A DNA stretch of 64,000 bases from a phage. Shown piece after piece: positions 12,386-30,870 of the stretch (its first letter is position 1; every line of letters starts with the position of its first letter). The DNA lies in the sequence record PZ583742.1; one strand, 5' to 3'. Made by a program: the position numbers and the translations under genes. The notes below the pieces were generated by a model. It did no database searches. It saw only the letters and a program-made list of their open reading frames with translations, and had not been told where the DNA came from.

Positions 12386-13564
12386 ATGTCTATTGCAGAT
12401 TTGAAATCCCGTTTGATTAAAGCTTCTACATCCAAAATGACCGCGACTCTTACCAAGTCCAAGTTTTTTAATGATAAAGATGTAGTTCGTACAAAAATCC
12501 CGATGCTGAACATTGCAATCAGCGGTGCACTAGATGGTGGTATGCAGTCAGGTTTGACTATTTTTGCTGGTCCGTCAAAACACTTTAAATCCAATATGGG
12601 TTTAACGATGGTCTCTGCATATATGAACAAATACCCCGATGCAATCTGTTTGTTCTATGATTCAGAATTTGGTATCACAGAAGCCTATCTTCGTGCAATG
12701 AAAGTTGACCCGGAACGTGTTATCCACACACCAATCCAGTCGGTTGAACAATTGAAAGTTGATATGGTTAACCAGCTTGAAGCAATTGAGCGTGGTGAAA
12801 AAGTCATTATCTTTATTGACTCAATCGGTAACATGGCATCGAAAAAAGAAACAGAAGATGCGATGAACGAAAAAGTCGTTGGCGATATGACTCGTGCTAA
12901 ATCCCTGAAATCTCTGTTCCGTATTGTTACCCCGTATTTTAGTATCAAGGATATTCCTTGTGTCGCGGTTAACCATACAATCGAGACGATTGAGATGTAT
13001 AGCAAAACCGTTATGACCGGTGGCACAGGTGTTATGTATTCCGCGGACACCGTATTCATTATCGGCAAACGTCAGATTAAAGAAACTGGTAAAGAACTTG
13101 AAGGCTTCCAATTTGTTCTGAACGCCGAAAAATCTCGTATGGTCAAAGAGAAAAGTAAATTCTTCATTGATGTAAAATTCGATGGCGGTATTGACCCGTA
13201 TTCTGGCCTGCTTGATATGGCAATGGAAATCGGATTTGTGGTGAAACCAAAAGTTGGTTGGTATAACCGTGAATATCTTGATGTTGAGACCGGTGAAATG
13301 GTCCGCGAAGAAAAATCATGGCGCGCAAAAGATACTAACTGCACCGAATTCTGGGGCCCATTGTTCAAACACGAACCTTTCCGTGACGCAATCAAACGCC
13401 ATTACCAACTGGGTGCAATCGATAGCAATGCTGTTGTTGATGCCGAAGTTGATGCGCTTATTGCCTCCAAGGTTGAAAAATACACTGCTCCTGAAGGTAA
13501 GACAAAACCGTCTGCTGCAGATATTGAAAACGATTTAGATATGATGGAAGACCTTGATGAATGA
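12386..13564 (+). CDS. uvsX: recombinase UvsX (RecA-like)
   Basis: Walker A GPSKHFKS; 392 aa; close to T4 UvsX throughout. Confidence 0.95.
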   Translation: MSIADLKSRLIKASTSKMTATLTKSKFFNDKDVVRTKIPMLNIAISGALDGGMQSGLTIFAGPSKHFKSNMGLTMVSAYMNKYPDAICLFYDSEFGITEAYLRAMKVDPERVIHTPIQSVEQLKVDMVNQLEAIERGEKVIIFIDSIGNMASKKETEDAMNEKVVGDMTRAKSLKSLFRIVTPYFSIKDIPCVAVNHTIETIEMYSKTVMTGGTGVMYSADTVFIIGKRQIKETGKELEGFQFVLNAEKSRMVKEKSKFFIDVKFDGGIDPYSGLLDMAMEIGFVVKPKVGWYNREYLDVETGEMVREEKSWRAKDTNCTEFWGPLFKHEPFRDAIKRHYQLGAIDSNAVVDAEVDALIASKVEKYTAPEGKTKPSAADIENDLDMMEDLDE

Positions 13565-13898
13565 TATCGATTTATCTGATTTAGATAATTTCGAGAAAGA
13601 TGCGGAGGGAGCTAAGGCTCCTTCTGTACCTTACTACGAAAAAAGTTTGGAGATTATCCGGCAATCCATGGGAACTGTACGACAGGAAATTCTGTTATCA
13701 CTCCCTGATGGGTCCAGTCACATTGTGTACGTAACCGGAATTAAAATTGAACCATCTGGAAAAGTTTCAGTTGATTTCGGCACCCCTTCTGAAGACCGCA
13801 AAGCGGAGCTTGCAGTGCATGTAGAAAAGTGTGTTACAATGCAAATACAAGATGAAATTGATAAGATTAAAATGAAAAAGAGGTGGTGGAAGTGGTAG
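13557..13898 (+). CDS. 40: gp40-like head vertex assembly chaperone
   Basis: 113-aa ORF between uvsX and gene 41, size and position as T4 gene 40. Confidence 0.55.
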   Translation: MNDIDLSDLDNFEKDAEGAKAPSVPYYEKSLEIIRQSMGTVRQEILLSLPDGSSHIVYVTGIKIEPSGKVSVDFGTPSEDRKAELAVHVEKCVTMQIQDEIDKIKMKKRWWKW

Positions 13899-15322
13899 AA
13901 ACTATTTTATCCCAGCTACTCTTTAACAAGGAATATTTTGTTAAAGTCTGGCCATATCTGAATAATACATATTTTGAAAAGGGTCCTGCAAAGACCCTTT
14001 TTAATACGATTAACGAACACGTAAAAGAATATCAAGCGGTACCAACTAAGACTGCACTTGATATCGCGCTCGACAGTTCTGACCTTTCTGAAGTCGAATA
14101 TGAAGGCACAAAGAAACTCTTAGGAGTCCTGGCCGATACTCCAGAAGACCAGGAATGGTTGGTTAAAGAAACCGAGAAGTATGTACAGAAGTCTGCGATG
14201 TTCAATGCCACATCCAGGATTATCGAAATCCAGAGTAATGCCGAACTTCCGAAAGATAAACGTGATAAACGAATCCCGGATATTGGTGCTATCACCGACA
14301 TCATGCGCGATGCATTGTCTATCTGTTTTGACTCTGCTCTGGGCCATGACTGGTTAAACGATTACGAAGCTCGATTCCAGACTTATCTGAACAAATCGAA
14401 GAAGGTTCCGTTCCGTATTAACATCCTGAATAAAATCACAAAGGGTGGGGTTGAGTACGGTACAGAGAACGTTTTACTGGCTGGGACAAACGTCGGCAAA
14501 TCCCTTGGACTTTGTTCGTTAGCGGCTGACTATCTTCAGACTGGTCATAACGTGCTTTATATAAGCATGGAAATGGCTGAAGAAGTATGTGCCAAACGTA
14601 TTGATGCCAACTTGCTGGATGTATCTCTGGATGATATTGATGAAGGTCATGTGTCATGGGCAGAATACAAAAGTAAGATGGAAAAATGGCGCGCAGCCGG
14701 GACTCTTGGGACTCTGAAGATAAAACAATATCCAACTGGTGGTGCTCATGCGGATACCTTCCGTGCATTATTGAATGAATACAAACTGAAACAAGGGTTT
14801 GTGCCGGATGTGATTATTGTTGACTACCTGGCAATCTGTGCAAGCTCAAGATTGAAAACGTTTACCGAAAACAGTTACGGCCTGATTAAAATGGTTGCAG
14901 AAGAACTTCGTGGCCTGGCGGTCGAGAAAAATGTGGTCCTGTGGACTGCAGCACAGACAACCAGGGGCGCGAACGTTGCAGCTGAGATTGATATGGCTGA
15001 CATTGCAGAATCCTTTGGTATTGCTCACACGGCCGATTTTATGTTGGGTGTTGTTGAGACTGAAGAATTCGCTCAAATGGGTCTGCAGTTAATCAAACAG
15101 CTTAAGTCTCGTTATGGTGATAAGAACTACTATAATAAATTCAAGATGGGTGTTAAGAAAGGTAATCAGCGCTGGTATGAGGTTGATGATGATTCGGCTC
15201 CTAAACAAGGCCCTACGGTTAAAGAAGCCACTGGTGAGATGAATCGCCAGGCTGAAATGAATAGACAAACCAGGGTCAACAGGAGCGACCTGGACGACCT
15301 TGCTGCTCAAATGAAATTCTAA
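13892..15322 (+). CDS. 41: replicative DNA helicase gp41 (DnaB-like)
   Basis: Walker A GTNVGKS; MVETILSQLLF aligns with the T4 gp41 N-terminus; GTG start 6 nt after GAGGTGG. Confidence 0.95.
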   Translation: MVETILSQLLFNKEYFVKVWPYLNNTYFEKGPAKTLFNTINEHVKEYQAVPTKTALDIALDSSDLSEVEYEGTKKLLGVLADTPEDQEWLVKETEKYVQKSAMFNATSRIIEIQSNAELPKDKRDKRIPDIGAITDIMRDALSICFDSALGHDWLNDYEARFQTYLNKSKKVPFRINILNKITKGGVEYGTENVLLAGTNVGKSLGLCSLAADYLQTGHNVLYISMEMAEEVCAKRIDANLLDVSLDDIDEGHVSWAEYKSKMEKWRAAGTLGTLKIKQYPTGGAHADTFRALLNEYKLKQGFVPDVIIVDYLAICASSRLKTFTENSYGLIKMVAEELRGLAVEKNVVLWTAAQTTRGANVAAEIDMADIAESFGIAHTADFMLGVVETEEFAQMGLQLIKQLKSRYGDKNYYNKFKMGVKKGNQRWYEVDDDSAPKQGPTVKEATGEMNRQAEMNRQTRVNRSDLDDLAAQMKF

Positions 15323-15340
15323 AGACCTTCGGGTCTTTTT
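15322..15340 (+). terminator. intrinsic terminator (UUCG tetraloop)
   Basis: AAGACC-TTCG-GGTCTT then TTTT, overlapping gp41 stop. Confidence 0.6.
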
Positions 15341-15350
15341 CATTTAGAGG

Positions 15351-15379
15351 TTTACAACACCATAAAAGGGGTGTACCAT
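15351..15379 (+). promoter_or_regulatory. early sigma70 promoter
   Basis: TTTACA, 17-nt spacer, TACCAT. Confidence 0.5.
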
Positions 15380-15380
15380 T

Positions 15381-15413
15381 ATCCCATCAACTACTGATGA
15401 GGATAATAAAATG
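15381..15413 (+). repeat. conserved 5' leader cassette, copy 1 of 3
   Basis: ATCCCATCAACTACTGATGAGGATAATAAAATG; near-identical copies at 24432-24463 and 28551-28583. Confidence 0.8.
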
Positions 15414-15659
15414 TTATTAGTTAATGTGCATTACCAGTTCAAATCTGAAGAAGCTCTCCAAAAGTATGCTGATATTTGTGAGCATAATAAAAGAACAGCT
15501 GCCATTGTTGGTCTGAAGCCTTTTAAAATTTTGGATTGCACCTTGAACAGAGCAAGGCGCTGGTGTAGTGTTGCCTGTCATGCTTCAGTTGAAGGGAATG
15601 ATTATTTTTTCATTACTTTCAATGCACAAGATTTTCATTTAATTAATGAATTAAAATAG
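15411..15659 (+). CDS. hypothetical protein (82 aa)
   Basis: ORF behind early promoter and conserved leader. Confidence 0.4.
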   Translation: MLLVNVHYQFKSEEALQKYADICEHNKRTAAIVGLKPFKILDCTLNRARRWCSVACHASVEGNDYFFITFNAQDFHLINELK

Positions 15660-15688
15660 TGTACAAGCCCCTTGACTTAGGACATAAT
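15660..15688 (+). promoter_or_regulatory. early sigma70 promoter
   Basis: TGTACA, 17-nt spacer, CATAAT; followed by CCACACTGAGTTAC leader. Confidence 0.55.
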
Positions 15689-15738
15689 GATTCCACACTG
15701 AGTTACACAATAAACCAACTGTTAAAAAGGAAAACCAT

Positions 15739-16041
15739 ATGTTTAATCAAACCGACATGAATCGTTACTATTTTGGACAATTCGCTCGCCGTGATGAAAA
15801 CTGTGCCGCTCTTATCGCATCAGGCATTCAAACTGGTAAATTAATAAAGCTCAAAAGCGATGTTCAACCTTCATCTGTTCGCAGCTCTCTTCGTGAGTAT
15901 CTGCTTGCAGGCGGTGAAGTGTACGTCATCGCCGAACCTTTTGTTAACGTGTGTGATGATTACACAATTAGTGTGACTGTTATGCACCCAACTACCGGGA
16001 AAATTCGTTGTCTGACTATGCGCAACTATGAGTTGGTGTAA
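15739..16041 (+). CDS. hypothetical protein (100 aa)
   Basis: ATG with AAAGGAAAACC upstream; ends at terminator. Confidence 0.4.
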   Translation: MFNQTDMNRYYFGQFARRDENCAALIASGIQTGKLIKLKSDVQPSSVRSSLREYLLAGGEVYVIAEPFVNVCDDYTISVTVMHPTTGKIRCLTMRNYELV

Positions 16042-16049
16042 GTGAATAA

Positions 16050-16071
16050 AGGGGCTTACAGCCCCTTTTTC
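16050..16071 (+). terminator. intrinsic terminator
   Basis: GGGGC-TTACA-GCCCC then TTTTT. Confidence 0.55.
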
Positions 16072-16109
16072 TTATGTTATAATGACTCTATCAACTACTG
16101 GAGAATAAA

Positions 16110-16427
16110 ATGAAAACCATTGATTGCAAGGCAGAATACAAAGTTTATTATCATGGGTCAAGCTCTAATGCTGGAATCCAAAATATGCTTTGCCCTCCTG
16201 ATGCAACTGGTGTTCTGTCAGAAGTTGGACGTAAGAAAAACCTGAATCGTGTGTTCTTTACTGAAGATATCGGTTTGGCTAAGATTTATGCTGGACGTGC
16301 AGCTCGTTCAGTGGGAGGAGAACCTCGTCTTTATCGTGTAATTGCTCCGGTAGATGTGGTTTGTTTAAATGATACTAAAGGCGCCACGGTTTATCATGCT
16401 GAATGGGCCTTCTGCGAGGAAATCTAA
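16110..16427 (+). CDS. hypothetical protein (105 aa)
   Basis: ORF preceded by TGTTATAAT extended -10 and ATCAACTACTGGAG leader; no confident domain. Confidence 0.4.
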   Translation: MKTIDCKAEYKVYYHGSSSNAGIQNMLCPPDATGVLSEVGRKKNLNRVFFTEDIGLAKIYAGRAARSVGGEPRLYRVIAPVDVVCLNDTKGATVYHAEWAFCEEI

Positions 16428-16430
16428 ATG
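16416..16430 (+). repeat. repeated gene-junction cassette GAGGAAATCTAAATG (copy 1)
   Basis: Identical 15-mer at 16626-16640; each encodes a C-terminal EEI, the stop, and the next start. Confidence 0.7.
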
Positions 16431-16637
16431 GAAGAGTTTGCTAAAGTAGTTTTTATCGGTTGGTTTGAAAATGATAGCATGTTTACCAAAGAAATCCGCA
16501 TGGATATATCAGACAAAGAGCATATCATGTGGGCGACCATGAGTTTTGCTGAAGTAAATAAAGCATTGGTAAAAGCCTTTGTCAACGATGTGAAAGTGTT
16601 TGAATGTGATTGGCGCAACAAGCCTGAGGAAATCTAA
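16428..16637 (+). CDS. dmd: Dmd-like antitoxin (discriminator of mRNA degradation)
   Basis: KVVFIGWFENDSMFTKEI...AEVNKALVKAF matches T4 Dmd as I recall it; lies next to gene 41 as T4 gene 61.5 does. Confidence 0.55.
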   Translation: MEEFAKVVFIGWFENDSMFTKEIRMDISDKEHIMWATMSFAEVNKALVKAFVNDVKVFECDWRNKPEEI

Positions 16638-16877
16638 ATGAATATTACCTTAATGAAACCAACTCCCGGTTCTTTTTGGAACAAATCTTTTGGTAAGCAT
16701 AATATGTTTATCCAACGCACTGTAAGCAACTGGGAACTAGTTCTTTCAGTCGGCCACAACGATTATGAACAAGAATACGTAGAGTTCTTCGATTTTCCTG
16801 TGAAGCCTACTAAGCGTCAGATTCGTCAGACAAAACGTAAATTCCGTAAAATTTATTTGGAAGACGCATTAAAATAG
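16638..16877 (+). CDS. hypothetical basic protein (79 aa)
   Basis: C-terminal PTKRQIRQTKRKFRK motif shared with ORF 18021-18242. Confidence 0.4.
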   Translation: MNITLMKPTPGSFWNKSFGKHNMFIQRTVSNWELVLSVGHNDYEQEYVEFFDFPVKPTKRQIRQTKRKFRKIYLEDALK

Positions 16878-16906
16878 TGTACAACAAAGGGATAATGCAG
16901 TATATT
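16878..16906 (+). promoter_or_regulatory. early promoter with stem-loop
   Basis: TGTACA, 17-nt spacer, TATATT; hairpin GGGATAAT/ATTATCCC spans the -10. Confidence 0.5.
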
Positions 16907-16934
16907 ATCCCTATCAACTACTGAGGAGATTGAA

Positions 16935-17228
16935 ATGAAAAAGTTATTAATCGCAGCAATTCTTACCGTAGCATCATGTGGTACAGCTCCAGTTACTGCT
17001 GGACTTGATAAAGACCTTTGTGAGTGGTCTATGACTGCGGACCAGACTGATGTTGAACATCAGATTTATGCCGATATCATGAATATTACTAAACGTGACC
17101 GCCCAGATATGGTTAAAGAAGTATCTGACCAATTGACTTCTGGTGACGTTATGCAGTATAACTATGTTCTGTATTGCGATGCTTCATTTGACAACAGCAA
17201 GATTGTTCAATGGGTTACAGGTGAATAA
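16935..17228 (+). CDS. secreted/lipoprotein-like protein, spackle-like by position and size
   Basis: 97 aa with signal peptide MKKLLIAAILTVASC; position corresponds to T4 sp (61.3). Confidence 0.4.
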   Translation: MKKLLIAAILTVASCGTAPVTAGLDKDLCEWSMTADQTDVEHQIYADIMNITKRDRPDMVKEVSDQLTSGDVMQYNYVLYCDASFDNSKIVQWVTGE

Positions 17229-17229
17229 A

Positions 17230-17667
17230 ATGATTAACAGAAATTTAGTTATCAAAAAACTTCGTTGTAAAAATCCAAATGCACAAGCATACAGGGCGTT
17301 TTGGAGCGACGACCATCAATACCTGGGTTATTTTCTTGTTGATAGTGATGATAGAATTACGTTTGCTCATAAACTTCTTAACAAAGAATTAAACCATTGG
17401 AAAGAACTTATTGCGGTCAAGTCCAAATTATTTTCTTGCAATACAATGCACCAATTGGTTTATTTTTTCGCTGATGGTATTCCTGACAAGGTTGAGTTTG
17501 ACGGGTTTGAATTTAAAGACATCAACCCTGATAATGAATTGAATGACAGTATTGTTAATATGGGTATCCCTGGCAAGTACATCAAAAACAGTCTTTTGAA
17601 AATTCTGGAAACCCCTGTTTATTCAGTTGACGACCAGATTTTTAATGCTTTCATGAAGCGAGATTAA
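17230..17667 (+). CDS. hypothetical protein (145 aa)
   Basis: ATG with GGTGA upstream; C-terminus SVDDQIFNAFMKRD shared with next ORF. Confidence 0.4.
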   Translation: MINRNLVIKKLRCKNPNAQAYRAFWSDDHQYLGYFLVDSDDRITFAHKLLNKELNHWKELIAVKSKLFSCNTMHQLVYFFADGIPDKVEFDGFEFKDINPDNELNDSIVNMGIPGKYIKNSLLKILETPVYSVDDQIFNAFMKRD

Positions 17668-17671
17668 TATG
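17626..17671 (+). repeat. 46-bp direct repeat, copy 1
   Basis: Matches 17978-18023 with 3 mismatches; spans a gene end, stop and next ATG. Confidence 0.8.
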
Positions 17672-18019
17672 AATGATTACAATTTTCTGAATTTTGAACT
17701 GGCGAGCAATAATGATGGTAATGCTCATTATGAATTCCGCGACCCTCGGTTTAATCAGGCGATTGGTTATATTATCGTTAAAGATGATATTATCATAAAG
17801 GCTCGCTCATTCCTGGTAATGAAAGGACCTTATGAAGATACTCGCGGTTATCCGTTTGATAAAAAGAATGTGCGTGATTGCGCCGCCTGGATAACGGGAA
17901 ATCCCAAAATTGGAGTCATGTTATCTGATGAAGCGAACGACATTTTGAATGGGGTAGGCAAAGCTCAAGAACAGTCTGTCGACGACCAGATTTTTAATGC
18001 CTTCATGAAGCGAGGTTAA
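17669..18019 (+). CDS. hypothetical protein (116 aa)
   Basis: Ends with SVDDQIFNAFMKRG, encoded by the second repeat copy. Confidence 0.4.
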   Translation: MNDYNFLNFELASNNDGNAHYEFRDPRFNQAIGYIIVKDDIIIKARSFLVMKGPYEDTRGYPFDKKNVRDCAAWITGNPKIGVMLSDEANDILNGVGKAQEQSVDDQIFNAFMKRG

Positions 18020-18023
18020 TATG
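17978..18023 (+). repeat. 46-bp direct repeat, copy 2
   Basis: See 17626-17671. Confidence 0.8.
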
Positions 18024-18242
18024 TTTGTTTTGACCCAATTCTCTAAAGCAATATATAGTTACTCTTGTCAATGGGAAGTCTTTATTGACACTCCGTCTCC
18101 CAAGTACGGAGTTTTTGGACGAGTAACTACTCAAGCTTACGTTGCTCGACCAACTAAACGCCAGATTCGTAAACTTAAAAAGGCACATCGTCAACTGATT
18201 AAAAGAAGGGAACAATATGAGTGCAATGTGTACGGGCTCTAA
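18021..18242 (+). CDS. hypothetical basic protein (73 aa)
   Basis: PTKRQIRKLKK motif paralogous to ORF 16638-16877. Confidence 0.4.
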   Translation: MFVLTQFSKAIYSYSCQWEVFIDTPSPKYGVFGRVTTQAYVARPTKRQIRKLKKAHRQLIKRREQYECNVYGL

Positions 18243-18627: not shown

Positions 18628-19656
18628 ATGTCATATATTGATAAAGAATTTGCAGTCAGAGCTTTATCGTATCAACCACGTTATAGAGAAGTCACCGGGA
18701 GCACATTTAAAGCAAACTGTCGTTGCAAGGTTTGTGGGGACTCCCAGAAAGATTCACACAAGGCTCGATTCTGGGCGTATACTAATCCGACTGATGGCGC
18801 GGTTTACGTGAAATGTTTTAACTGTGACTACTCCACGCATATAAGCAAATACATAAAAGAGTTTGAGCCGGATTTACACCGGGAATATATGGTTGAGAAG
18901 TATAAGGAGAATGCATTTGGGCGACAACGCACTGAAGTTGCAGAAGCTCCGAAAGAACCAGAAAAAACTCCGGTTATTGAGCAGCTTGCTTTTTGTGAAA
19001 GACTCGATACTTTACCAGAAGCACATCCGATAATTAAGTATGTAAAAAGTCGGTGTATTCCGAGCAATGTTTGGAACCGGTTATGGTTTACAAACAAATG
19101 GCCTGCATTAGTTAACTCCGTTAATCCTGGGACGTATAAGAATGAAACGAATGAACCACGCTTGGTTATTCCTATCTTCAACGGCAAAAAAGAAATCGAA
19201 TCTTTCCAAGGACGAGCTCTTCGCAAAGATGCACCACAAAAATATATCACAATCAAAGCTCACCCAGAAGCTTCCAAAGTCTATGGCGTAGACAAGATTG
19301 ATGAGCGTAAACGCGTATGGGTAATGGAAGGTCCAATTGATAGTTTGTTTATCCCTAACAGCATTGCGATAACCGGTGGAACATTAGCATTGGAAGCTGT
19401 TCCTTACCCAGAAACCAGAGTATGGGTGATGGATTCAGAAGCAAGACATCCTGATACGATTAAACGTATGAAGAAATTAGTCGATGCAGGAGAAGCTGTT
19501 ATGTTCTGGGACAACGCACCGTGGCATACGAAAGATATAAATGAAATGATTAAATCGGAAGGAGCAACGCCTGAGCAAATTGAAGCCTATATGAATGATA
19601 ATATTGCACAAGGTTTAATGGCAAAACTTCGATTATCCAAATATGCAAAAATATGA
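18628..19656 (+). CDS. 61: DNA primase gp61
   Basis: Zinc ribbon CRCKVCGDS...CFNCDY; 342 aa; C-terminal LMAKLRLSKYAKI as in T4 gp61. Confidence 0.95.
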   Translation: MSYIDKEFAVRALSYQPRYREVTGSTFKANCRCKVCGDSQKDSHKARFWAYTNPTDGAVYVKCFNCDYSTHISKYIKEFEPDLHREYMVEKYKENAFGRQRTEVAEAPKEPEKTPVIEQLAFCERLDTLPEAHPIIKYVKSRCIPSNVWNRLWFTNKWPALVNSVNPGTYKNETNEPRLVIPIFNGKKEIESFQGRALRKDAPQKYITIKAHPEASKVYGVDKIDERKRVWVMEGPIDSLFIPNSIAITGGTLALEAVPYPETRVWVMDSEARHPDTIKRMKKLVDAGEAVMFWDNAPWHTKDINEMIKSEGATPEQIEAYMNDNIAQGLMAKLRLSKYAKI

Positions 19657-23855: not shown

Positions 23856-24416
23856 ATGAACATCATCAAATCTGATACCGAACCCAACCAGTTAAAATTT
23901 AGTGAAATGGAGATAGCTTCATTATTTGAGTGTCGCACATCAAAGGTTGATAAGACCTTGCATTCAAACGTTAACTCAATCATCAAGTCAAGGTTATCTG
24001 TACCTGATACAGTCTTGTATCGTGGGGTTACCCAGCAAGAGATTGATTTGTTAGATGAAGCAAAAGAATCAATGCAACCTTTTGAATTTGGAAGGATAAC
24101 CTCCTTTACAGAAGACTATGGTATTGCCAGGGATTTTGCTGCAATGGAATATGTGTCAAGGACTATCATCAGATTGAATCATACAAAAGCTTTTTGTTAC
24201 CATGATGCGATGCGCAAAATCGCGCTTGACGTTCCACTGGAATTCTTCAATACTGCTTCTGGTTCCGAACAGGCAGCAACGTTAAGACGTGAAGAATACA
24301 TGGACATGATTGATTCTGAGCTTGAATGGTTTGTTCCAGTTGACCAGAAATTCGTGGTGGTTGATGCTGGATTTGTTGGTGATTATTATGTTCTTGACTG
24401 TGTACAAGAGCAATAA
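23856..24416 (+). CDS. ADP-ribosyltransferase (R-S-EXE type; ModB-like by position)
   Basis: LYRG Arg, SFT motif and ELE in SELEWFVPV; 186 aa. Confidence 0.55.
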   Translation: MNIIKSDTEPNQLKFSEMEIASLFECRTSKVDKTLHSNVNSIIKSRLSVPDTVLYRGVTQQEIDLLDEAKESMQPFEFGRITSFTEDYGIARDFAAMEYVSRTIIRLNHTKAFCYHDAMRKIALDVPLEFFNTASGSEQAATLRREEYMDMIDSELEWFVPVDQKFVVVDAGFVGDYYVLDCVQEQ

Positions 24417-24463: not shown

Positions 24464-25075
24464 CTGTACACAAGTCACCAATTAGCAGAGTACATCAATG
24501 CAGTTAAATGTGAATATTTTCGTGAAAATACCCAGATTGAAATTGATGAAATTTACTCTGAGTTGGAACAGAGTACACTCTGGCAGTGTATGGAAAATAA
24601 GCCAGACACTATCCAGGAAACTTTGAACAAAATTATTCGTAAGAATTTGACTTCTGCTGTGCCTGGTAAGTTATATCGCGGGATTTCTAAGAAAACTTTG
24701 GCATATCTTGAAACCGTAGGATGTGTTGGTGCTACGATTGAGTTTGACCGTGTAATGAGTTTCTCCAAAGATTTCAGTGTTGCGCGTAACTTTGCTTCCT
24801 TTAGCTTCTATGGAACCAAAAATATTTTCTGTATTAATGATGCACCATTCGCATTTGATTATCAGGAAGCGATTTTTAAAATGATTTGTGCGGCACCTCC
24901 TGAAGAGTTCAACGGACTATATCCTGAAATAACTCGTTCTTCAAACTTGCAATTAGTAAATGATGAAGATGAGATGATGTTCCCTGCGGGAACTACGCTA
25001 CGCGTGGACTCTATTGAGAGCATTTATAGATGGGAAGACTATAAATTATGGAATCTTTCTGTTCTTTCTTACTGA
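24461..25075 (+). CDS. ADP-ribosyltransferase (R-S-EXE type; ModA-like by position)
   Basis: LYRG, SFS motif and EDE in DEDEMMFPAG; start at 24461 after the leader (ORF-track start 24428 lies inside the leader). Confidence 0.55.
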   Translation: MLYTSHQLAEYINAVKCEYFRENTQIEIDEIYSELEQSTLWQCMENKPDTIQETLNKIIRKNLTSAVPGKLYRGISKKTLAYLETVGCVGATIEFDRVMSFSKDFSVARNFASFSFYGTKNIFCINDAPFAFDYQEAIFKMICAAPPEEFNGLYPEITRSSNLQLVNDEDEMMFPAGTTLRVDSIESIYRWEDYKLWNLSVLSY

Positions 25076-30278: not shown

Positions 30279-30509
30279 ATGTTTAATGAAAATTGTGTGA
30301 CCACTTCCCTGACTGCTGAAGAGTTCTGGGACACTGCTGAAAGTGATAAAGTGATTGTGAAGAAAAACATCAATGAATTTCTTTGTACCACTGACATCAT
30401 TTATGTGTACGCAGATAAAGATGCAGAACTACCTAGCTATGCGCTGTTCCGCGAAGAATCAGAAGATGGCACAGATTTTTGGAAGGAGACTTATCATGTT
30501 GAAATTTGA
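30279..30509 (+). CDS. hypothetical acidic protein (76 aa)
   Basis: ATG with GAGGAG upstream. Confidence 0.35.
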   Translation: MFNENCVTTSLTAEEFWDTAESDKVIVKKNINEFLCTTDIIYVYADKDAELPSYALFREESEDGTDFWKETYHVEI

Positions 30510-30870
30510 AACTGATAAATGGTATTATTTTAAAGATAATGTTGCTGAAAGCAGATTTCGTTTGTTATGCTCTGATAATGATAATATAGCTGATGCTATA
30601 ATCAATGGTGAAGGATTTAGACCAGTCGGAATTGAAGGTGGTGATGTATATCGGATAGAATTTTCGACCGGTGGAATAGAGAGAATATTCATAAAGGAAG
30701 ATGAGCGTCGTTTCTTTGAAGAAGAAAAAGATGACGATACTGAAGATGAATGCGAAGACGCTGATGAAGCATTTGAACCAAGCGAATTCCCTTTGACTAA
30801 AATCACCATTTCTAATAACTCTGAAGCCTGGACCGTTTACCAGATGTTGAAAGCACACTTTAAGGAATAA
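30496..30870 (+). CDS. hypothetical protein (124 aa) with acidic tract
   Basis: AAGGAG SD then ATG 30496; EEEKDDDTEDECEDADE run. Confidence 0.4.
   Translation: MLKFETDKWYYFKDNVAESRFRLLCSDNDNIADAIINGEGFRPVGIEGGDVYRIEFSTGGIERIFIKEDERRFFEEEKDDDTEDECEDADEAFEPSEFPLTKITISNNSEAWTVYQMLKAHFKE

Follow-up and report, generated by a model that had tools for sequence, protein, structure and literature searches.

The window, by which we mean the whole 64,000-nucleotide stretch of phage DNA that was analysed, carries an interval at 15323-16427 between the helicase gene 41 (13883-15322; DnaB_C, 2e-13) and dmd (16428-16637, + strand; Pfam Dmd, 5.7e-23), which encodes the antitoxin against host RnlA/LsoA. Within this interval lie three + strand ORFs of 82, 100, and 105 aa. 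ORF1 (15411-15659) is short and homologous to T4 GoF/ComC-alpha over the N-terminal half of the latter, ORF2 (15739-16041) is an ORFan restricted to Gaprivervirus, and ORF3 (16110-16427) has a predicted stand-alone mini ADP-ribosyltransferase (ART) fold related to Arr and Tpt1. Downstream of dmd, a 61.4-like gene (DUF7279; 16638-16877, + strand) belongs to the same transcription unit as ORF3, in which it comes third, and the 41-61 hyperplastic region as a whole also carries sp and AdfA-related ORFs in addition to dmd. In T4, dmd comes directly after gene 41, with a 58-nt spacer containing an early promoter between them. That three mutually unrelated small genes occupy the junction here, unlike in T4, had been recognised in a preliminary description of this DNA, and this is correct.

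For short ORFs such as these, it is worth considering whether at least one is a chance reading frame in an intergenic spacer rather than a gene. ORF2 has neither a homologue beyond one genus nor a confident structure, and the substitutions in ORF1 are too few for a selection test. However, a Shine-Dalgarno sequence and a promoter are present at each of the three; ORF2 has changed by 10-13 synonymous versus 2-3 non-synonymous substitutions (dN/dS 0.04-0.08, purifying selection); ORF1 has 13 close records, homologues at 57% identity in 71 further records, and a significant match to GoF; and ORF3 has homologues in at least 610 phage records. SP18 and UPEC01, the nearest relatives, both have all three annotated as CDSs. 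Given these signals, the selection, and the homologues, we dropped the spurious-ORF reading, the chance of which we put close to nil. The three are real, early-type, non-housekeeping genes of the 41-61 hyperplastic region, as had been supposed; the anti-defence role considered for them at that point is conjectural for each.

Each gene has its own early-type, sigma-70-like promoter. That of ORF1, (G)TTTACA-N17-TACCAT (15351-15379, + strand; 9/12), shows one mismatch only to the T4-group PeSL consensus TTTACW-N17-TAYWAT (PMC4122927). ORF2 is preceded by a promoter-like site, TGTACA-N17-CATAAT (15660-15688, + strand), the 5' part of which is overlapped by a 17-nt exact repeat, ATTAAAATAGTGTACAA (family D7), located at 15650-15666 and again at 16868-16884. 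The promoter of the ORF3-dmd-61.4-like unit, CTTACA-N17-TATAAT with an upstream TG (16055-16083, + strand; 10/12), is the highest-scoring site of the region. The promoter scan gave 19 sites where shuffled sequence gave 6.2 +/- 2.3, which makes lone 9/12 sites weak evidence. However, a -10/5'UTR cassette (ATCAACTACTG plus Shine-Dalgarno; families D2 and D3) occurs in three copies, which precede ORF1 (15374-15411, + strand), ORF3 (16078-16115), and sp (16901-16938).

Two + strand hairpins accompany these promoters. One, at 16048-16068 (-15 kcal/mol, z -3.4), is a strong terminator that closes ORF2, in line with the earlier remark that one of the three genes has a terminator of its own; its sequence extends into the -35 element of the promoter that precedes ORF3, and the two form a PeSL-like composite. 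The other, at 15321-15338 (-8.1 kcal/mol, z -4.4), closes gene 41 and has a UUCG-type loop followed by a U run; it is also the stem-loop half of a PeSL-like cassette.

Mobile promoter/stem-loop (PeSL) cassettes have been described in T4-type phages (Arbiol 2010, PMC2839356; Comeau 2014, PMC4122927), and the same pairing of a stem-loop with an early promoter is found here twice, at 15321-15379 and 16048-16083. The likeness extends to the hyperplastic region, the near-consensus promoter, the repeated sequences (families D2, D3, and D7), and the variability of the flanked ORFs, which differ in presence between close relatives. The differences are that the stem-loop adjoins only two of the three promoters and that each repeat is only 17-38 nt long; recombination at these repeats is presumed.

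The whole of ORF1 aligns with GoF residues ~1-85 (4.7e-20 against phrog_2980 “goF”; by BLASTP against T4 GoF, 40% identity over 40 aa, E 1e-7), and it lacks the acidic C-terminal half of the 141-aa T4 GoF/ComC-alpha. Nor does it lie at the place of T4 GoF, beside cef and gene 39; neither full-length homology nor synteny was found for ORF1, and the true syntenic goF sits elsewhere in the window, at 30496-30870. A word-index search recovered only the ORF1 cluster itself. The 71 further records, found by tblastn, are of RB3-type and similar phages, and the one inspected is a Tequatrovirus; the RB3-type homologue is an 84-aa protein (57% identity) encoded between 61.4 and sp. A weak zf-CGNR match (E 0.0075) was discarded, since neither RB3 nor T4 GoF keeps the Cys residues. 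We read ORF1 as an additional copy of the N-terminal domain of GoF, and it is on this ground that we would guess at a role in modulating mRNA metabolism or Rho-dependent termination; with GoF itself so poorly understood, the kinship tells little about ORF1.

ORF2 is found in 22 phage records, all from Escherichia or Shigella phages, and every one that was fetched is a Gaprivervirus. It forms a single 90% cluster among 5.8e9 proteins, the homology search returned this cluster only, and Pfam, NCBIfam, and PADLOC gave no match. The single-sequence AF2 model (pLDDT 45) was unusable and was left out of the fold search. ORF2 is a genus-specific small protein, one that presumably binds a host factor.

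Turning to ORF3, the distribution is of another kind. Its records span many genera and include Klebsiella (116), Acinetobacter (68), and Aeromonas (62) phages, along with many that infect Escherichia. It follows gene 41 in Dhakavirus, Gaprivervirus, and Mosigvirus, as well as in the Pectobacterium-, Yersinia-, and Enterobacter-phage loci that were fetched; T4 does not have it. The gene is under purifying selection (dN/dS 0.07-0.15). Compared with the Acinetobacter-phage copies, ORF3 retains 72-74% identity, against 55-60% for gp41 and 54-56% for gp61, and compared with JS10 it retains 93%, against 80% for gp41 and 63% for Dmd. By these identities ORF3 is better conserved than the replicative helicase, and such slow evolution is more in keeping with a target conserved among hosts than with an arms race against some variable defence protein.

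The three genes do not share a history. VR20, VR25, and VR26 have ORF2 and lack ORF1, so these two vary independently and are, judging from the loci compared, recent and individually variable additions. A single three-gene mobile unit was rejected: ORF3 is widespread at the junction, and ORF1 and ORF2 are present or absent separately. The preliminary description had seen one three-gene insert in an ancestral 41-dmd junction and had proposed a comparison of that junction as a check; the comparison agrees with recent arrival for ORF1 and ORF2 and does not support it for ORF3, which is the ancestral occupant beside gene 41, with T4 as the lineage that lacks it.

Structure prediction, also proposed as a check, gave ORF3 an ART fold. 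The AF2 model (pLDDT 86) displays the split beta-sheet of this fold, all of its significant Foldseek neighbours are ARTs (Arr at probability 1.0, TMq 0.62), and as modelled it appears closest to Arr and Tpt1. Sequence searches are less direct. ORF3 alone found nothing in Pfam at E ≤ 1, and hence does not itself reach the Arr-ms gathering score; NCBIfam, PADLOC, and PDB sequence searches with ORF3 or the close-family profile also found nothing. The Arr connection surfaced only once the profile was widened with distant homologues: in the PDB the wider profile retrieved Arr proteins and no others (E 0.003), and six distant homologues (P0151, P0130, P0128, P0146, P0156, and P0166) reach the Pfam Arr-ms gathering score on their ORF3-like stretch (27-31 bits; cut-off 25). 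The link between ORF3 and Arr is transitive and, through the predicted model, structural.

The profile alignment places H15-G-S of ORF3 on Arr H19-G-T, and E38-x-G-R41-x-x-N44 on Arr E40-x-G-R43-x-x-N46. The first position of the catalytic triad is a His, part of an H-G-[ST] motif located where strand 1 ends, and both NAD-site motifs, HG[ST] and ExGRxxN, are kept; the earlier remark that no catalytic motif could be confirmed is superseded. H15-G16 is invariant in alignments of 40 and 32 sequences, and in the 32 diverse sequences E38, R41, F49, Y60, G69, and G70 are invariant as well; the conserved set as a whole comprises H15-G16-S17, E38-x-G40-R41-x-x-N44, F49, T51, Y60, R63, and G69-G70. In the sequence alignment, the position of Arr Tyr49 is taken by the invariant Phe49 and the catalytic Asp84 of Arr falls on the variable N87/D88. 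This variable Asp84 site, together with the Tyr49-to-Phe replacement, means that catalysis by ORF3 cannot be taken for granted.

ORF3 has the ART core of Arr (PF12120; PDB 2HW2, 9IAF) together with its HG[ST] motif and E-x-G-R-x-x-N loop, and Arr is the nearest sequence family. One phage record even labels a homologue (H72) “rifampin ADP-ribosyl transferase.” Could ORF3 then be a rifamycin-inactivating enzyme that shields host RNA polymerase? T4-type phages rely on the host RNA polymerase throughout infection, which would give such an enzyme a purpose. However, ORF3 is 38 residues shorter than Arr (105 versus 143 aa), aligns with Arr residues 13-82 only, and does not itself match Pfam Arr-ms. 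It has no counterpart beyond Arr ~85, and so lacks both the catalytic, rifampin-contacting D84-P-N, with no conserved acidic residue in its place, and the C-terminal ~55 residues, in which Arr contacts rifampin through S99 and V140 (PMC6092378). With D84-P-N and the C-terminal rifampin region missing, we rejected a rifampin resistance enzyme as very improbable indeed.

Catalysis by the RNA 2'-phosphotransferase Tpt1/KptA depends on an Arg-His-Arg-Arg tetrad. Only 75 residues of ORF3 match a 179-aa Tpt1 chain and correspond to the NAD+-binding C-lobe of Tpt1/KptA only, and because the N-terminal, RNA-binding lobe is missing most of the tetrad is missing too. The ORF3 product is accordingly not a two-lobed Tpt1/KptA protein. 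T4 Alt, ModA, and ModB, the textbook host-takeover ARTs, belong to the R-S-E clade, whereas ORF3 has no sequence relation to them and is of a different clade; the comparison also took in AcrF11, a phage ART with an anti-CRISPR function. We found no biochemical data on any member of the ORF3 family in the literature searched.

The domain also occurs in much larger company, within proteins of up to 3924 aa. In the shorter of these homologues (≤1981 aa), Pfam identifies ART-PolyVal, NUDIX, 2H/Acb1-like, GNAT, Toprim, LPD23, ddrB-ParB, and portal domains alongside. These are polyvalent proteins, multi-effector fusions that phages and plasmids carry into new hosts and in which ART domains are a known component (Iyer et al. 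2017, PMC5512222). The difference is that polyvalent proteins are virion-delivered fusions, whereas ORF3 is a free-standing early gene.

These contexts bear on whether ORF3 is an enzyme at all. A catalytically inactive ART fold could work through binding alone: it might be a sponge that soaks up immune signals derived from NAD+ or ADP-ribose, or it might serve as decoy or inhibitor against host ART toxins (DarT, CmdT) or an NAD+-using defence. Of the canonical catalytic residues, Phe replaces the second (Tyr), and the site of the third (Arr D84) is not conserved; the 105 aa amount to roughly the NAD-binding core, with the C-terminal substrate region of Arr missing; and AdfA, to which ORFs of the same region are related, works by binding DarT1. 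Against this, the conservation of HG[ST] and ExGRxxN is what one expects of an enzyme active site, and the fusions, direct with NUDIX in three architectures and also with 2H phosphoesterase, suggest that the product undergoes further processing. Proteins that bind variable defence proteins usually evolve quickly, unlike ORF3. Finally, an acidic third residue is not indispensable to ARTs, as the H-Y-I/Y mono-ARTs are active without one. Balancing these points, we consider an inactive binder unlikely and take ORF3 to be a probable enzyme.

Whatever ORF3 does, its relationship with dmd needs careful inspection. The TAA of ORF3 abuts the ATG of dmd within GAGGAAATCTAAATG (16416-16430, + strand), the dmd Shine-Dalgarno sequence lies inside the last ORF3 codons, and neither promoter nor terminator was seen between the two, so that they would be co-transcribed and, from the look of the junction, ORF3 is translationally coupled to dmd. 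The zero-spacer coupling recurs in Dhakavirus, Gaprivervirus, and Mosigvirus loci; it is real in these three genera and may be functional. An ART in this position was already known from a computational prediction: Iyer et al. 2022 (Viruses 14:1977; PMC9503650) described, for T4-like phages of Escherichia, Shigella, and Salmonella, a predicted small ART of the H-Y-[EDQ] clade encoded just upstream of dmd, predicted that this p0068-family ART and Dmd form a toxin-antitoxin pair, and reported a Mod-like ART beside Dmd in Klebsiella phages. Their gene arrangement is exactly that of ORF3 and dmd, and ORF3 is likened to “p0068” by text description. No experiment on the predicted pair was found in the literature searched.

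A phage type II toxin-antitoxin pair, with ORF3 as ART toxin and Dmd neutralising it in addition to blocking host RnlA/LsoA, would account for this junction and its recurrence. The order of the genes is toxin first, as in rnlAB/lsoAB, the modelled ORF3 fold appears related to the ART toxins TreX, ParT, and RES, and ORF3-like domains are found in giant multi-effector proteins. The distribution points the other way. Dmd follows ORF3 in 10 of 68 IMG/VR loci and is absent within 4 kb in the other 58, iterated jackhmmer included. About 200 phages have both genes. Among the matches listed, however, Dmd is confined to phages of Escherichia, Shigella, Yersinia, Salmonella, and Citrobacter and a few more, and several hundred ORF3 records come from host genera without detected Dmd. 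The downstream genes elsewhere are heterogeneous and mutually unrelated, encoding membrane or secreted proteins. In VR26, of the same genus, ORF3 stands alone, followed by a gene for a 188-aa secreted protein, and the 41-61 interval lacks dmd (of this genome, the first 50 kb were read); this phage is missing from the best 60 Dmd tblastn matches; conversely, T4 and RB3 carry dmd without ORF3. Dmd is fast-evolving, and the copy here is atypical for the genus (63-65% identity to same-genus dmd, 74% to that of Tequatrovirus HY01/RB27), whereas ORF3 is nearly frozen. As to the junction itself, tight coupling is the norm for T4-type genes that lie side by side, and its 15-mer recurs identically between dmd and the 61.4-like gene (16626-16640; family D13). 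With inconsistent co-occurrence across the 68 loci and differing host-genus ranges, the data argue against an obligate pair and do not support the partnership in that form; we doubt that ORF3 and Dmd are toxin and antitoxin.

The reading we favour, and regard as probable, treats the interval as a mosaic: its three early genes are independent of one another, ORF3 is an NAD+-dependent host-modifying ART, and ORF1 and ORF2 were added by way of PeSL-like cassettes. At 11.6 kDa, ORF3 would be a minimal NAD+-dependent ADP-ribosyltransferase and belong to the Arr/Tpt1-like branch. Its gene would stand first in the ORF3-dmd-61.4-like operon, with an early promoter of its own from which host RNA polymerase transcribes it. 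For host takeover, it would probably ADP-ribosylate a target highly conserved across Gammaproteobacteria, and would do so independently of Dmd; candidates include host proteins, the ends of RNA molecules, and other small acceptors. ORF1 and ORF2 may have been inserted between gene 41 and ORF3 by recombination at the repeated cassettes.

A bolder proposal makes ORF3 a fourth, mechanistically distinct class of T4-like-phage ART that acts on nucleic acid and forms an RNA-protection module with Dmd. It could carry out Tpt1-like ADP-ribosylation or de-phosphorylation of RNA ends, or mark mRNA or tRNA; ORF3 and Dmd would together protect RNA against host RNase toxins, and the NUDIX and 2H domains fused in the polyvalent relatives would process the reaction product. 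We hold this to be improbable next to the host-modifying reading, which we keep. ORF3 represents a fourth ART family that has never been studied because T4 itself lacks it. Its acceptor, once identified, would reveal either a conserved host vulnerability or a new ADP-ribosylation reaction on nucleic acid or a small molecule, and would show at the same time whether a second partner of Dmd exists within the phage. What remains, ORF1 and ORF2 with the repeats of the cassettes, is an ordinary case of hyperplastic-region shuffling.

The window belongs to a Gaprivervirus, a T4-like phage, and its stretch 14800-17000 shares ~93% identity with SP18, UPEC01, and TH44. Local gene order starts with uvsX (12386-13564) and gene 40, followed by gene 41 (13883-15322), ORF1 (15411-15659, 82 aa), ORF2 (15739-16041, 100 aa), ORF3 (16110-16427, 105 aa), dmd (16428-16637; Pfam Dmd, 5.7e-23), a 61.4-like gene (16638-16877; DUF7279), sp, three further small ORFs, 61.1, and primase gene 61 (18628-19656). 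ORF1-ORF3, all on the plus strand, lie where the preliminary description placed them and are also annotated CDSs in SP18 and UPEC01. That description saw them as a three-gene insert relative to T4, a correct point of comparison, since there dmd comes 58 nt after gene 41 and only this spacer, carrying the early promoter GTTTACA-N17-TATAGT, separates the two. Comparison of the junction between relatives upholds the proposal for ORF1 and ORF2, which are variable, but not for ORF3. In Dhakavirus (JS10) and in the fetched Pectobacterium, Yersinia, and Enterobacter phage loci, the latter comes immediately after gene 41; in Gaprivervirus it is likewise placed directly behind that gene, and in Mosigvirus one other ORF lies between them. 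T4 is therefore the exception in lacking ORF3. In Acinetobacter phages ORF3 lies within the 41-61 interval, and in Aeromonas and Klebsiella phages elsewhere. The architecture of the 41-dmd interval is the ordinary one of a hyperplastic-region mosaic.

The item of substance here is ORF3, a widespread, ultra-conserved predicted mini-ADP-ribosyltransferase (mini-ART). By tblastn it occurs in 610 phage records (Escherichia 216, Klebsiella 116, Acinetobacter 68, Aeromonas 62; also Enterobacter, Cronobacter, Vibrio, and others), and its conservation is unusual: between the window and Acinetobacter phages identity is 72-74% for ORF3 against 55-60% for gp41 and 54-56% for gp61, and with JS10 it is 93% for ORF3, 80% for gp41, and 63% for Dmd.

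ORF1 matches phrog_2980 "goF" (4.7e-20) and resembles T4 GoF in the latter's N-terminal part (E 1e-7), its whole length aligning to GoF residues ~1-85, and is less like the window's own full-length, syntenic goF (30496-30870; E 0.018). Close copies (≥95% identical) occur in only 13 records and a 57%-identical homologue in 71 more; in the one of these inspected, the Tequatrovirus RB3, the homologue sits between 61.4 and sp, within the same hyperplastic region. ORF1 is thus a putative mobile "GoF-N" mini-gene. Modulation of mRNA or termination would be only a guess at its role, given how poorly GoF itself is defined. ORF2 is found in 22 records, all from Escherichia or Shigella phages and each fetched one a Gaprivervirus; a search of 5.8 billion proteins gave one cluster only, family searches gave no match, and structure prediction no usable model. 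Purifying selection is clear (dN/dS 0.04-0.08 for ORF2, 0.07-0.15 for ORF3), so ORF2 is a real, genus-specific ORFan. Presence of ORF1 and of ORF2 is independent (VR20, VR25, and VR26 lack ORF1), and Mosigvirus has a different ORF, of 124 aa, at the same place.

Each ORF is preceded by a Shine-Dalgarno (SD) sequence and a promoter-like site (ORF1, TTTACA-N17-TACCAT; ORF2, TGTACA-N17-CATAAT; ORF3, CTTACA-N17-TATAAT with TG upstream), which bears out the promoters described earlier. Our scan found three times as many sites in the real as in shuffled sequence, so a lone 9/12 match is weak and means little. That the ORFs are spurious is scarcely credible, given these signals and the selection on ORF2 and ORF3. 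Stable hairpins with U-tails follow gene 41 (15321-15338, -8.1 kcal/mol) and ORF2 (16048-16068, -15 kcal/mol), the second overlapping the -35 of the ORF3 promoter. A -10/5'UTR element (ATCAACTACTG plus SD) recurs before ORF1, ORF3, and sp, and a 17-nt exact repeat, ATTAAAATAGTGTACAA, lies upstream of ORF2 and of sp. Such stem-loop/promoter composites and repeats fit the PeSL (mobile promoter/stem-loop cassette) model, in which modules are shuffled within the hyperplastic regions of T4-type phages (PMC2839356, PMC4122927) and by which the interval may have been built. A perfect 10-bp hairpin without U-tail (16884-16916, -11.4 kcal/mol), within the sp promoter spacer, is a further composite of this type. 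ORF3 and dmd are mosaic as well: against SP18, dS is 0.58 for ORF3 and 0.13 for gp41, and the dmd allele resembles Tequatrovirus alleles more closely than congeneric ones.

In family libraries ORF3 matches only an unnamed PHROG, phrog_2110. Structure prediction, which the preliminary description had proposed, gave a confident AlphaFold model with an ART fold (pLDDT 86; input alignment of 40 homologues), for which Foldseek returned the rifampin ART Arr first, then pertussis toxin S1, Arr-2, RES, ParT, and tankyrase. A profile run against 1.84 billion representative proteins yielded 243 relatives, and the profile widened with these matched, in the whole PDB, Arr proteins alone (E 0.003). The ORF3-like stretch of six distant relatives reaches the Pfam Arr-ms gathering score, BFVD holds a 94-aa phage protein of that name (38% identity), and several GenBank records already label homologues "ADP-ribosyl transferase." ORF3 is, on the predicted structure, an ART-fold protein.

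In alignment, H15-G16-S17 corresponds to the HGT motif of Arr, and E38-x-G40-R41-x-x-N44 to E40-x-G-R43-x-x-N46 in its flexible NAD-binding loop; these positions are invariant or almost so in the wide family. The HG[ST] and ExGRxxN motifs are thus common to both proteins, but of the critical Arr residues H19, Y49, and D84 (PMC6092378), Y49 is replaced by an invariant Phe49 and D84 falls on N87/D88, both variable. The C-terminal rifampin-contacting region has no counterpart. ORF3 thus does not belong to the Arr enzymes, and rifampin as its substrate is highly improbable. Catalytic competence is nevertheless predicted as likely. The altered Y49 and D84 sites would also suit an inactive binder or sponge, which we consider unlikely in view of the company kept by ORF3-like domains.

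Many relatives are embedded as domains in very large proteins (the longest of 3924 aa), namely "polyvalent proteins," which phages and conjugative elements carry into a new host (PMC5512222). Pfam scans of the shorter homologues (≤1981 aa) gave ART-PolyVal, NUDIX, GNAT, Toprim, LPD23, ddrB-ParB, lambda-type portal, and 2H/Acb1-like phosphoesterase as partners. Among the distant homologues P0145, P0189, P0168, and P0179, NUDIX stands immediately after the ORF3-like domain in three different architectures, which argues for a domain performing real NAD+/ADP-ribose chemistry whose product would be processed onward. In a portal fusion from the same set, a 2H/Acb1-like phosphoesterase follows the ORF3-like domain. 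The recurrence of NUDIX or 2H partners is a hint that an ADP-ribose-containing product is processed.

The stop codon of ORF3 and the start codon of dmd are contiguous, the dmd SD sits within the final ORF3 codons (GAGGAAATCTAAATG), and neither promoter nor terminator was found between them; ORF3, dmd, and the 61.4-like gene would thus form one early operon. The arrangement fits, by description and not by accession, the ART toxin and Dmd antitoxin pair predicted by Iyer et al. (PMC9503650); both the ART nature of ORF3 and its dmd neighborhood had already been noted computationally. A toxin-antitoxin pair is nonetheless doubtful. Of 68 IMG/VR loci, only 10 have Dmd after ORF3, and iterated jackhmmer finds none in the others, where a very divergent Dmd could escape detection; elsewhere the gene after ORF3 codes for unrelated membrane or secreted proteins. 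Detection of Dmd is confined to phages of Escherichia, Shigella, Yersinia, Salmonella, Citrobacter, and a few others (742-798 records), dmd occurs without ORF3 in T4 and RB3, and VR26, of the window's genus, has ORF2, ORF3, and then a 188-aa secreted protein, with no dmd in its 41-61 interval. Adjacency therefore looks lineage-specific rather than obligate. We lean toward ORF3 as an early enzyme that would modify a conserved target using NAD+, without involvement of Dmd.

In VR26 the 188-aa protein, with a signal-like N-terminus, occupies the dmd position (L028:4289-4855); small proteins with such N-termini follow ORF3, directly or one short ORF later, in the Yersinia, Pectobacterium, and Enterobacter phage loci. 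The window dmd is an outlier allele, 95.7% identical to one record alone, 74% to the next best (Tequatrovirus HY01/RB27), and 63-65% to its own genus, with flanks at 93-99%. An identical 15-nt junction, GAGGAAATCTAAATG, borders it on either side (16416-16430 and 16626-16640), and this suggests an allele swapped by micro-homology. Some Gapriverviruses, namely UPEC01, VR20, and VR25, carry a second, longer Dmd-like gene (110-113 aa; jackhmmer 1e-14 to 1e-18) right after dmd (L002:3332-3673, L010:4532-4873, and L027:4492-4824), where the window has its 61.4-like gene.

That gene has a DUF7279 paralogue at 18021-18242, also in the 41-61 region, with a common PTKRQIR motif and a 21-nt repeat. Adjacent ORFs at 17230-17667 and 17669-18019 terminate alike in SVDDQIFNAFMKR[DG], a sequence that forms the C-terminal tail of T4 gp61.2 (AdfA, anti-DarT1 factor), with a repeat at 17623-17678 / 17975-18030. 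Apart from the tail they hardly resemble AdfA; its locus here is therefore occupied by two shorter, tail-sharing genes. Two Mod-like ARTs are encoded at ~23895-24365 and ~24548-25006, and with these and a full-length goF present, ORF3 and ORF1 add to those functions rather than replace them.
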